Below, piece after piece: positions 40,660-42,854 of a stretch of DNA of 64,000 nucleotides (position 1 is the stretch's first letter; each line of letters starts with the position of its first letter). The notes below the pieces were generated by a model that saw only the letters and a list, made by a program, of their open reading frames with translations, ran no database searches and had not been told where the DNA came from. This DNA is from a virus (lineage: Duplodnaviria; Heunggongvirae; Uroviricota; Caudoviricetes). The position numbers and the translations under genes are program-made. The stretch lies in IMG/VR virus record IMGVR_UViG_2687453522_000001; one strand, written 5' to 3'.

Positions 40660-40853
40660 TGAAACCTCGTAGAATCTGGTGTGTTAACCGATTCTACGAG
40701 TAGTCATTTGTTCATTGAGTGGGAATATTGCCGTCCGGGAGTAATATGGTATCATTAAGTTAGAGTAGGTAGTGTAGATGGAATGAGGAGTATCATATGG
40801 TTATCACACAATCAGGTTGCTTTGAGTCAGGTTGTTTTGAGTAAAACAATAAA

Positions 40854-40879
40854 ACGCCCTTTAATGGGCGTATTTTTTT
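40854..40879. terminator. bidirectional hairpin with T-tract at the edge of the AT-rich island
   Basis: ACGCCC-tttaa-TGGGCGT followed by ATTTTTTT; lies about 10 nt before the ATG of the membrane-protein gene. Confidence 0.45.
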
Positions 40880-40889
40880 AGGATTTAAA

Positions 40890-41783
40890 ATGCATTCTTT
40901 ACAGAAATACATAAAACATAAATATACTCACTTAACTTTTTTTCTCTCATTACTTTTCTTCATGATATTTGAATCTCGAGAAGATATTATCAAGAAAACA
41001 TTATCTTTTTCTCTCGATGAAGTTTTACCATTCTTAATGTTTGCGTTCTTCTCCGCCTTTATCAGCATAACGATAAAGGAAAAGATAGCAAAAAAATACC
41101 CAGAAACAAACGATGGGATTACCATTATAGCTTTAATCTTTGGTGTAACGCTATATAGTGTATTTATATTATATTATTTATATGGTGATGTATACCAATC
41201 CACAATTGCTTTACTTATAAGTTCTGTGCTACTTGGTTCTGGGTGGTGGGTTCAGGCTACTGTGAGTAAAGTAGCCGCAAGAAAATCACACACCTTAAAT
41301 ACACTAATGAATCAAAGAAACAGTGAATTATTTCACAAAAAAGTCTCATCGGTAGCGAATACGTTCGGGCTTAGAAAAACCATAAATGAAATTATTGCCA
41401 AACAAAGACTTATCCCAAATGATAAAGATTTAAAAAATAAAAAGGTCCATGATAAATACATATCAGCAGGTAATGATATGTTCTTCGTTCTTAATTATTA
41501 TGAGTTTATCTGTTCAGGAATAATAAATGGAGACTTTGATGAAGATTCAATGAGAGAATGTCTTGGACAAATTGTTCCAGGTCTCGAAGTTAGAGCATTT
41601 CATTTTATAAGAATTGCAAGAGAAATTTCAGGGAGTAGCTGCTTCTGTAATTTTGTTGCTGTTTCAGATAAATGGTCTACTAATGGAGGCTCTCTTATTC
41701 TCAGACACGAGAAAGGAGAACCTGTGATCAATAACCTGACCCATTGCTTTGAAGAAACAGCCTGTTATAACACAACATCTTAA
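40890..41783 (+). CDS. multi-pass membrane protein with a ~170-aa cytoplasmic C-terminal domain (accessory cargo at the sim position)
   Basis: About four N-terminal hydrophobic helices; very AT-rich; opposite strand to flanking phage genes. Confidence 0.6.
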   Translation: MHSLQKYIKHKYTHLTFFLSLLFFMIFESREDIIKKTLSFSLDEVLPFLMFAFFSAFISITIKEKIAKKYPETNDGITIIALIFGVTLYSVFILYYLYGDVYQSTIALLISSVLLGSGWWVQATVSKVAARKSHTLNTLMNQRNSELFHKKVSSVANTFGLRKTINEIIAKQRLIPNDKDLKNKKVHDKYISAGNDMFFVLNYYEFICSGIINGDFDEDSMRECLGQIVPGLEVRAFHFIRIAREISGSSCFCNFVAVSDKWSTNGGSLILRHEKGEPVINNLTHCFEETACYNTTS

Positions 41784-41791
41784 TATTTTGT

Positions 41792-41815
41792 AACCCATAA
41801 TCGCTTTATGGGTTA
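41792..41815. terminator. bidirectional hairpin between convergent genes
   Basis: AACCCAT-aatcgcttt-ATGGGTT inverted repeat. Confidence 0.35.
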
Positions 41816-41834
41816 CGTTAAATTTGCAATAAAA

Positions 41835-42311
41835 TTAATCGCCGCGCTTTAAGCATCCATCGTTTTTAGCTTGTTGATATAATTTACTTAGCCCAGAAAG
41901 AGGAAATGTGGCAATTTTTTCATTATCAACATAAGCATCGATCGCATTAGCATTTGAATCTGCTGCATCTTGCCAAAAGGCATACCACCAAGAATCTCCA
42001 ACCATTGACCCAAGATTGCTAAAAGGGTATTGCTCACCATCTAATGTTAATACTATTTTACTCTTGTCAGCATTATACTCTTTTTTATTATTCGACGACC
42101 TTAGCAACAGGCCTAAACTACCGGCACTATCTGGTGATCCATACATGAAACCCATATCACATAAAAAACTTATCTTATCACCATTTTGATTATGGATTGT
42201 ATATTCTCTCCCCCCTCTATCTTCAATTACATTCCATTGTAGAGGATCAATTTTTGCAAATACTCCTGCTGAAATTAACGATACAAATAATAAAAACCAT
42301 CTCATATTCAT
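41835..42311 (-). CDS. secreted (signal-peptide) protein, 158 aa
   Basis: N-terminal MNMRWFLLFVSLISAGVFA signal-peptide-like sequence; AT-rich; downstream of the 116-aa membrane protein on the same strand. Confidence 0.55.
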   Translation of the reverse strand: MNMRWFLLFVSLISAGVFAKIDPLQWNVIEDRGGREYTIHNQNGDKISFLCDMGFMYGSPDSAGSLGLLLRSSNNKKEYNADKSKIVLTLDGEQYPFSNLGSMVGDSWWYAFWQDAADSNANAIDAYVDNEKIATFPLSGLSKLYQQAKNDGCLKRGD

Positions 42312-42333
42312 TTTTTTCGCTTCTTATCTGTAA

Positions 42334-42684
42334 TTATTCTGCAATATCATTTGCCCATTGCACGGCAGCAAAATGAGTGCCCAAGCCACTCAGGAAAGCA
42401 ATTATTCCCAAAACAATACTAGCTGCTGTTGATTCAAACAAAGCACCAATGCTATAGCCAATAGCTCCCCATACTAAGCTAAAGACAATCATCAATGGTA
42501 TTGCCAGAAATTTTATTCTTAAACTAAAAATCAGTCCAAGAAATGAACCGCCAAAGGCCCACCATGATTTAGACATTAAACCTATCAGTATTGACAGAAT
42601 TCCTATTTCAATAAAGAGAATATTAGATTGCTCTTCATTGAATTTCGCATTTGTTACACCTTTACGAACATGTTCAGATGACAT
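42334..42684 (-). CDS. small inner-membrane protein (three predicted TM helices), 116 aa
   Basis: Hydrophobic segments ILFIEIGILSILIGL, IPLMIVFSLVWGAIGY, IVLGIIAFLSGL; AT-rich. Confidence 0.55.
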   Translation of the reverse strand: MSSEHVRKGVTNAKFNEEQSNILFIEIGILSILIGLMSKSWWAFGGSFLGLIFSLRIKFLAIPLMIVFSLVWGAIGYSIGALFESTAASIVLGIIAFLSGLGTHFAAVQWANDIAE

Positions 42685-42837
42685 GATTAACTATCTCCAG
42701 CCACAGATAAAACGCCTTAAAATAACATTTTGTAGCACAAAGTTTCACCATGCAATGGTCAAAGTCTTTGATCCATATCAATTAGAGTTATACATTTTAG
42801 TTGCATAGCTAATAATTTATACGGACACAAATTGCTC

Positions 42838-42854
42838 TAATTATTTTGTTTTTT
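42838..42854 (+). promoter_or_regulatory. C1 operator-like site (ATTGCTCTAATTATTTT), immI promoter region (Op51-like)
   Basis: 15/17 match to the consensus, upstream of the c4/icd/ant block. Confidence 0.5.

Follow-up and report, generated by a model that had tools for sequence, protein, structure and literature searches.

What fills the sim locus of a P1-like phage-plasmid when the sim genes are absent, and what might such cargo do? In P1, simC-simB-simA are annotated in the interval that runs from pmgC/LPsit to the immI C1 operator. The 64,000-nt stretch of DNA analysed here (the window) carries three other genes in this interval, bordered by pmgC/tub on the left and, on the right, by the C1 operator and then a C4 RNA (43039-43126; Rfam, 76.7 bits). 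GC content is 0.30-0.37 over 40650-42900 versus 0.45-0.52 in the flanks. For 40712-42830 it is 0.34 versus 0.474 for the window (z = -3.65), a level reached by 0.3% of stretches of equal length, and the window minimum falls here. An earlier note on this DNA had described a strikingly AT-rich block that replaces simABC between the tail operon and the immI operator, and all of this is borne out, with LPsit on the left and the C1 operator on the right.

Positions 40660-40711, which the earlier note had included, are conserved backbone carrying the LPsit late promoter (40691..40709, minus strand; -10 TAGAAT, -22 box AAATGACTA; placed by transferring the P1 annotation by offset), and the variable island begins only at 40712. 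In alignments, the LPsit sequence is unchanged up to 40711 in P1, P7 and three other P1-like elements, and the Megablast match to P7 ends at this position; the conserved backbone ends with LPsit, which bounds the variable locus on the left. The following segment, 40712..40872, is a P1-type simC downstream segment, common to P1 and absent from P7 and other cassettes. Compared with P1, it has 17 nt inserted and 15 bp duplicated in tandem (40812-40841), and the Megablast match to P1 stops at 40872-40878. A C1 repressor operator (42831..42847, plus strand), equivalent to Oc4/Op51 by P1 annotation and with two mismatches to consensus, forms the right edge, and Megablast homology to JL22/RCS47 restarts at 42832. 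The window holds seven C1 operator sites versus 0.35 expected. The P1 sim locus has already been published as a low-GC variable region (PMC9603915; PMC6906374). Its variability was thus already known; its cargo here is a mosaic of gene A and the pair C-B. Every cargo seen at this locus consists of membrane or secreted protein genes, including P1 SimA/B/C, P7 upf50.0 plus a lipoprotein, SimA-long, YfjT-like proteins and SH3 membrane proteins.

The three open reading frames, here called A, B and C, are exactly those listed earlier: 297 aa on the plus strand, and 158 aa and 116 aa on the minus strand. Gene A (40890..41783) encodes an N-terminal membrane region followed by a cytoplasmic DUF4760 domain. 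Hydropathy analysis gives strong hydrophobic segments at residues 44-63 and 75-99 and weaker ones, read by eye, at about 15-35 and 103-123; A is therefore predicted to have 3-4 transmembrane (TM) helices, in line with the roughly four first proposed. The DUF4760 match (PF15956, hmmscan) scores 52.5 bits against a cut-off of 25, covers profile positions 13-141 of 141 and corresponds to an all-helical domain at residues 120-262. The same domain is matched in 22 of 22 aligned homologues, and 23 homologues share invariant polar motifs. Gene A, which corresponds to phrog_21275, yields an AF2 model with a pLDDT of 82.6. Typical DUF4760 members are about 150-185 aa long with one TM helix. Gene A resembles the DUF4760 proteins of phages and bacteria in its full domain and its stand-alone insertion at cargo positions, yet differs from typical members in having about three additional N-terminal TM helices, and this long N-terminus is kept in homologues at 46-56% identity. 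A full-text literature search on DUF4760 returned nothing functional, the match being unrelated.

The surroundings of its relatives show that gene A is a stand-alone, moron-type gene that other prophages carry as cargo too. Homologues lie after the primase of a P4-like satellite in Erwinia, between lysis genes and the integrase in P. putida, and in a terminator-flanked insert within the tail module of Acinetobacter phage TRS1, and further homologues adjoin integrases. Placement of the Erwinia gene at the P4 psu-int defence hotspot was considered and rejected, since it sits after the alpha primase by integrase fragments and not in the psu-int interval. These settings also bear on the idea that the proteins serve the resident phage's own cycle, in injection, lysis timing or virion release. 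The block adjoins the tail-tube and Sit transglycosylase operon, relatives of A lie beside lysis genes in two Pseudomonas phages, and some members give weak holin-family matches. Those matches are sub-threshold (E 0.045-0.13), however, with scores far below the family cut-offs, and the three genes lie outside the LPsit late operon, with A oriented away from it. Presence at the locus also varies among near-identical P1-like elements, P1 itself lacking all three genes, and a role in the phage's own cycle appears quite improbable.

Gene B (41835..42311, minus strand) encodes a predicted Sec-secreted periplasmic protein of the YfjT family (PF27224). As the earlier note had stated, its N-terminus reads as a typical Sec signal peptide, MNMRWFLLFVSLISAGVFA|K, with a canonical n-h-c organization and VFA|K; a signal peptide of this kind is seen in 14 of 14 aligned family members. 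The AF2 model (pLDDT 85.6, pTM 0.78) is disordered at residues 1-20, and the family alignment shows conserved cysteines C51 and C153 and an invariant W109. Family membership is established by a PF27224:YfjT match on the cluster representative (P0001), which is 93% identical to gene B, and by BLASTP against K-12 YfjT (28% identity, E 2.6e-10 over 143 aa). Gene B itself gave no hit in a Pfam hmmscan at E <= 1, the Pfam copy scanned having been without PF27224. Large repeat proteins and a META-domain protein matched B in phmmer; these matches were judged spurious because Pfam showed the repeats to be unrelated, and the hhalign probability against the family profile was 1.2%. A reduced-alignment search for loci related to the B family returned two loci only, one of them a misbinned P1-like fragment. 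Full-text searches found nothing functional on yfjT and nothing on this cassette. Gene B resembles YfjT of the cryptic prophage CP4-57: both have the same size, a predicted signal peptide, conserved Cys/Trp positions and a preceding small membrane-protein gene on a mobile element. They differ in that identity is only 28% and the K-12 partners, YpjK and the lipoprotein YfjS, are unrelated to C.

Gene C (42334..42684, minus strand) opens the C-B pair, with 22 nt separating it from the downstream B, and encodes a 116-aa predicted inner-membrane protein. Its four hydrophobic stretches imply four TM helices, not the three first proposed. Its cytoplasmic N-terminus is conserved (VRKGVTNAKFNEEQS), and TM1 contains an invariant Glu. 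The protein corresponds to phrog_15014, has no Pfam or PDB match and belongs to no known family; a DUF981 hit was discarded as sub-threshold and seen in only one of 12 family members. Homologues of C occur alone in a myovirus tail module, beside an AAA_15/21 ATPase and in Moraxella plasmids. Homologues of C and of YfjT are found in ordinary chromosomal settings as well. The earlier description of the block as being of unrecognised type thus needs qualification: A and B belong to the named families DUF4760 and YfjT, and C has no family.

All three are real genes under purifying selection, with dN/dS of 0.08 for A, 0.18-0.21 for B and 0.08-0.11 for C. This bears directly on whether the block could be hitch-hiking AT-rich DNA with no maintained function, as its low GC, the lack of an assignable promoter and the lack of a known function might suggest. 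The dN/dS range of 0.08-0.21, motifs conserved across genera at 30-60% identity and confident AF2 models all oppose that idea, leaving it scarcely credible.

Two hairpins had been thought to bracket the block. Both are real, but they flank gene A only. The first (40854..40871) is bidirectional and intrinsic-terminator-like, with a 6-bp stem and a T7 tail on the plus strand (-11.8 kcal/mol, z -2.9). It lies 18 nt before the gene A ATG, and its equivalent in P1, conserved in the alignment, is at the simC terminator position. The second, at about 41790..41816, has an 11-12-bp stem (-15.6 kcal/mol, z -5.9) and separates the convergent genes A and B. Gene A begins right after the terminator-like hairpin. 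Leader-peptide or attenuator control of A was considered for a 15-codon ORF (40797-40844) with a GAGGAG Shine-Dalgarno sequence upstream of this hairpin, and rejected because the P1 version has four codons and the added length is the 15-bp duplication. The region upstream of gene C (42685..42830, minus strand) stands where most related cassettes have a SimA-long gene; in the alignment, it has about 45 nt in common with other C cassettes and about 95 nt of unique sequence. No minus-strand promoter-like site in this region passed the scan, which assigned a promoter to neither the A unit nor the C-B unit. A sigma-70 promoter for C-B was dropped, the only candidates being weak ones seen by eye.

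Do these genes form one system? The earlier note had treated them as a single module, and an integrated toxin/immunity or abortive-infection system would combine membrane effectors with a secreted partner. In favour of this, A, B and C lie side by side in 24 identical PLSDB plasmids and 40 complete E. coli genomes, and all three products are envelope proteins. Their distributions differ, however, which largely refutes the idea: in PLSDB, 32 plasmids have A, 67 have C and 183 have a member of the B family. C-B without A is found in about 26 plasmids, and A has other partners in five; the cassette SimA-long->C->B->SH3 lacks A. A also occurs by itself in other phages and adjoining a satellite, C without a YfjT gene, and YfjT alleles without C. 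A is found, too, beside a 37%-identical YfjT allele, and in five plasmids it is joined to the remnant of a truncated B, which shows recombination within the block. A and B are, moreover, convergent with a hairpin in between. An integrated system is accordingly very unlikely, and with obligate co-occurrence absent, nothing points to a toxin/immunity pair. The block is a recombinational mosaic of two modules, A and C-B, that are unrelated and move independently.

The C-B module has a wider context. A YfjT-type cassette with at least five allele classes, of which C-B is one, fills the sim locus in most P1-like elements lacking sim; by PLSDB occupancy, this cassette (183 plasmids) exceeds SimC (141). 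At the locus, B alleles share only 28-37% identity although the backbones that carry them are otherwise nearly identical, whereas SimC hardly varies. A Salmonella element has a C of 72% identity whose YfjT partner is 28% identical. In three unrelated settings, the gene ahead of a YfjT-like gene encodes a small membrane protein: C here, ypjK/yfjS in K-12 CP4-57 and, in Enterobacter, an unrelated protein of 116 aa. P1 simA itself looks like a remnant of a YfjT-type cassette.

Comparison with known exclusion systems reveals likeness of slot and kind, together with clear differences in sequence. SimC was reportedly characterized, by Kliem and Dreiseikelmann in 1989, as a processed periplasmic superinfection-exclusion protein of P1 simABC. 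Gene B resembles SimC in its putative cleavable signal peptide and its predicted location in the periplasm, and C-B shares with sim the same genomic slot, the minus strand and low-GC foreign DNA. Unlike P1 Sim, the A/B/C proteins show no sequence similarity to SimA/B/C: BLASTP gave nothing below E = 2, and the probability from hhalign for the B-family profile and SimC was 0.5%. In addition, B has 158 aa versus 264 aa for SimC, the 4-TM partner C comes first in place of SimA/SimB, and a convergent DUF4760 gene is added. More broadly, P22 SieA, T4 Imm/Sp and HK97 gp15 are small proteins of the inner membrane or periplasm that prevent DNA injection. The present proteins are like them in kind, being prophage-expressed, small and multi-TM in the inner membrane, whether or not a periplasmic protein accompanies them, yet show no family match to them in the comparison made, by hmmscan at E <= 1. 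Pfam includes models for exclusion proteins such as T4 Imm and SieB, and A, B and C matched no exclusion-protein family of this type in Pfam (hmmscan, E <= 1), no PADLOC-DB v2 defence model at E <= 1 and no solved structure. P22 SieA, a small 3-TM inner-membrane exclusion protein, has sequence types less than 30% identical (PMC10883804), and gene B shares with it this highly divergent allele pattern.

Position, predicted localisation and allele diversity together make envelope-level phage exclusion the most likely function of the block, and the cargo probably protects the lysogen from incoming phages. From these features we infer both the anti-phage activity and its mechanism. An exclusion or other anti-phage role, as first suggested, stays plausible, though not for a single module. 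In the overall explanation we favour, to which we would give slightly less than an even chance, the block would be accessory cargo of the sim locus in a P1-like IncY phage-plasmid, made up of two modules. Gene A, a DUF4760 inner-membrane protein with its conserved helical domain toward the cytoplasm, would be a determinant of exclusion or abortive infection in its own right, anchored in the membrane. C-B, encoding a small 4-TM inner-membrane protein and then a Sec-secreted periplasmic YfjT-family protein, would act in the periplasm or inner membrane to hinder incoming phages from delivering their DNA, working like Sim, T4 Imm/Sp or P22 SieA though unrelated to them. Weighing against this explanation are the chromosomal settings of C and YfjT homologues, the failure to assign a promoter to either unit and the start of gene A straight behind a terminator-like hairpin.

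Predicted envelope localisation, the one property established, would also suit lysogenic-conversion proteins unrelated to phages and active in immunity against pore-forming bacteriocins or T6SS effectors, adhesion or envelope-stress fitness. C has the size of a small multi-TM immunity protein, B resembles periplasmic immunity proteins, and 'putative adhesin' is the annotation of the best viral fold match. In K-12, YfjT belongs to a cryptic element that also encodes a lipoprotein and a small membrane protein, and the chromosomal and Moraxella settings of C homologues fit as well. In Enterobacter, 1.2 kb separate a YfjT homologue from an hcp gene, but the two are divergent rather than co-oriented; T6SS immunity as a stand-alone idea for the YfjT family was rejected, this being a single case on the opposite strand. 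No sequence match to bacteriocin or T6SS immunity families was found, the slot is that of a proven exclusion gene, and relatives of C and A are morons within phage structural or lysis modules. Lysogenic conversion is therefore an unlikely account overall, though a more serious competitor to exclusion than the others.

A broader version of the exclusion reading is more speculative, and we consider it somewhat doubtful. YfjT periplasmic proteins with interchangeable small inner-membrane proteins would form a widespread, unrecognised superinfection-exclusion class, and DUF4760 a new single-gene family of membrane-anchored anti-phage proteins. YfjT systems would be the main occupant of the sim locus and would act against contractile-tailed phages as these deliver their DNA; an arms race would account for the extreme diversity of alleles in these systems, and DUF4760 proteins would be carried as morons by many temperate phages.

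These findings present the sim locus as a polymorphic slot in which a YfjT-type cassette occurs in more plasmids than the textbook sim genes. The genes are small and cheap to test, and offer a potential function for YfjT, DUF4760 and one unnamed membrane-protein family, that of C. If the proposal is true, an E. coli K-12 y-gene, yfjT, and a Pfam domain of unknown function, DUF4760, would gain a function. Clinical and animal E. coli commonly harbour P1-like phage-plasmids, which are vehicles of resistance genes, and the exclusion that these plasmids exert helps set which phages, therapeutic ones included, and which transducing particles enter their hosts.

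The window belongs to a P1-like IncY phage-plasmid, and E. coli plasmids such as NZ_CP023961.1 match the queried block at 100% identity. All three genes proposed by an earlier note were recovered: gene A (40890-41783, plus strand, 297 aa), gene B (41835-42311, minus strand, 158 aa) and gene C (42334-42684, minus strand, 116 aa). The block is as AT-rich as that note described: GC is 0.34 over 40712-42830 (z = -3.65), compared with 0.474 window-wide, and the minimum of the window falls here. GC is also low (<0.40 over 2.1 kb) in two further islands, at about 1051-4119 and 46201-48469. 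Aligned with P1, P7 and three other P1-like elements, the backbone proves conserved to 40711, just beyond the LPsit late promoter (40691-40709). The next stretch, 40712-40872, is common to the window and P1 only and corresponds to what follows simC there, with the simC terminator hairpin included. At the right end, homology with other P1-like phages restarts at 42832; the edge is marked by a C1 operator (42831-42847), beyond which come an isrK-like RNA and then the C4 antisense RNA. In P1, simC, simB and simA fill exactly this interval, which confirms the proposed position, and the sim locus has already been reported as one low-GC variable region of P1-like elements (PMC9603915; PMC6906374).

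The two hairpins thought to enclose the block are both real, but only gene A lies between them. For neither A nor C-B could a promoter be assigned. Gene A starts 18 nt past a hairpin resembling a terminator, which means that transcription of A must read through this hairpin or begin within it. Relative to P1, a 17-nt insertion in the 40728-40755 region produces a promoter-like site with an extended -10 (TTGCCG-16-TGnTATCAT) directed at gene A, and a 15-bp tandem duplication (TCAGGTTGCTTTGAG/TCAGGTTGTTTTGAG; 40812-40841) stretches a 4-codon ORF to 15 codons. Beyond the block, an isrK Hfq-binding sRNA (42917-42995; Rfam 58.5 bits, above gathering) lies immediately upstream of the C4 antisense RNA of the immI leader (43039-43126; Rfam 76.7 bits), a region overlapped by a 39-aa 'ash family protein' ORF in the plasmid record annotation. 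Seven C1-operator-like sites (<=3 mismatches to ATTGCTCTAATAAATTT) occur in the window, against 0.35 expected by chance, at 8-24, 483-499, 10815-10831, 14664-14680, 42831-42847, 44569-44585 and 61203-61219.

The idea that the three genes form one system was not supported, since the distributions of the A, C and B families differ and the locus is a mosaic. Among PLSDB plasmids, A occurs in 32 (29 of them P1-like), C in 67 (50 P1-like at >=90% identity, plus 15 Moraxella plasmids) and the B family in 183. SimC, found in 141, is nearly monomorphic; the YfjT-type cassette, to which B belongs, therefore fills the locus more often and varies far more. One integrated toxin/immunity system is accordingly among the less likely readings.

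The inspected loci reveal how the cassettes vary. A 93%-identical B allele sits in a four-gene cassette without A, in the order SimA-long (a 212-aa secreted protein), C, B and an SH3-domain membrane protein of 344 aa. In five plasmids, A lies beside a 56-codon remnant of B, followed by a 37%-identical YfjT allele and SimA-long, so recombination has taken place within the block. Other elements lack C and carry SimA-long and a YfjT allele, in some cases together with the SH3 protein. A Salmonella element has SimA-long, a 72%-identical C and a 28%-identical YfjT; C is kept while its YfjT partner diverges or is swapped. Overall, the block very probably comprises two separable accessory envelope modules at the sim hotspot.

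The SH3 protein, 344-389 aa long, has a TM segment in the middle and a bacterial SH3_3 domain at its C-terminus; its gene is an optional last member of YfjT-type cassettes (comparison loci L016 3482-4651, L019 4552-5586 and L014 2386-3420), and gene A takes its place in the window. P1 SimA (52 aa; P1 locus L001 3413-3571) matches only the first ~41 residues of SimA-long (163-222 aa, secreted; compared in loci L016, L017, L018, L019 and L031), at 92% identity; SimA-long is the leading gene of YfjT-type cassettes elsewhere among P1-like elements. As an N-terminal piece of SimA-long, simA looks like a truncated remnant left after simB-simC replaced the rest of the cassette.

All three genes are under purifying selection (dN/dS 0.08 for A, 0.18-0.21 for B and 0.08-0.11 for C), which marks them as real, maintained genes; junk DNA is one of the less likely readings. 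Topologies were derived from hydropathy and charge. B carries a canonical Sec signal peptide, and its AF2 model, which is confident (pLDDT 85.6, pTM 0.78), is rich in beta structure and has two helices; fold searches returned no functional match. PF27224 (YfjT) is present on the 93%-identical relative, and B itself matches E. coli K-12 YfjT directly (28% identity, E 2.6e-10). Only 22 relatives emerged when 1.84 billion representatives were searched exhaustively with phmmer. In the family alignment C51 and W109 are invariant and C153 almost so, suggesting a periplasmic disulfide.

In C there are four hydrophobic stretches; a Glu in TM1 is invariant, and the N-terminus, predicted to be cytoplasmic, is conserved. 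C matches no family in Pfam, NCBIfam, PADLOC or the PDB. Among the loci inspected, homologues of C lie next to an integrase, behind a gene for a secreted DUF4431 protein and in an unremarkable chromosomal context. Two more, in the 62-64% identity range, are a lone gene in an uncultured myovirus (L030 3212-3559), between tail-tube/chaperone genes and a putative tape-measure gene, and a Vibrio metschnikovii gene (L029 2707-3060) directly 3' of an AAA_15/AAA_21 ATPase gene. A small membrane-protein gene precedes a YfjT-like gene in three unrelated settings: C before B here, ypjK with the lipoprotein gene yfjS before yfjT in K-12 CP4-57, and an unrelated 116-aa membrane protein on an Enterobacter chromosome (L034 1158-3932). 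This Enterobacter YfjT homologue has a T6SS hcp gene ~1.2 kb away in divergent orientation, and a LuxR-type response regulator comes after it. A 2.9-kb contig of a 'Bacillota bacterium' MAG (L033, JAFAFU010000002.1) holds a YfjT allele, pmgC, tub and pmgB; as a P1-like fragment, it is probably misbinned or a contaminant.

Hydropathy gives A three to four N-terminal TM helices (strong hydrophobic segments 44-63 and 75-99; weaker ones ~15-35 and ~103-123), followed by a DUF4760 domain (residues 120-262; 52.5 bits against a cut-off of 25). By the positive-inside rule, the N-terminus and this domain are probably cytoplasmic. Several polar motifs are invariant across 22 aligned sequences (Q122, R131, H134, T135, N137, Q142-R143-N144-S145, N202-Y-Y-E-F, D217 and C224). 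In the loci inspected, homologues of 37-56% identity are single genes in cargo sites: 3' of the primase in an Erwinia P4-like satellite, between integrase and lysis cassette in a P. putida prophage, and beside an integrase close to RloB/AAA_21 genes. More distant relatives adjoin the coliphage phi467 integrase, lie beside lysis genes at the genome end of Pseudomonas phage Riah, and form a terminator-flanked insert between tail chaperone and tape-measure genes in Acinetobacter phage TRS1. That the proteins serve the cycle of the resident phage itself is also among the less likely explanations.

The modules act as morons in other mobile elements. All three genes encode predicted envelope proteins and stand in place of a proven exclusion operon, all other cargo observed in the slot is likewise secreted or membrane-bound, and the periplasmic component is hyper-variable at one fixed locus. 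Together, these features suggest anti-phage roles for C-B and A. Acting within the lysogen's inner membrane and periplasm, C-B would hinder DNA delivery by incoming phages, resembling Sim, T4 Imm/Sp and P22 SieA in its proposed working but unrelated to them. A may be an independent membrane-anchored exclusion or abortive-infection determinant with a conserved polar pocket at the cytoplasmic face. An anti-phage role for the block is a tentative proposal, with somewhat less than even chances. Its main rival, distinctly less probable, is a conversion function unconnected with phages; examples are immunity to bacteriocins or T6SS, adhesion and envelope fitness.

Comparison with P1 SimA, SimB and SimC, by which the earlier note could have been refuted, revealed no homology, and no PADLOC model matches A, B or C. 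DUF4760, the family of A, and YfjT, that of B, have names but are uncharacterised; C belongs to no family. The block is already public, in 24 PLSDB plasmids and in 40 of 5,426 complete E. coli genomes, every time on plasmids, annotated as 'DUF4760 + hypothetical x2'; a literature search found no paper studying it. It is prophage envelope cargo or an exclusion-type locus made of unstudied families. A specialist would not find this very surprising, but a cheap direct test of the block could reveal what YfjT, DUF4760 and the C family do.
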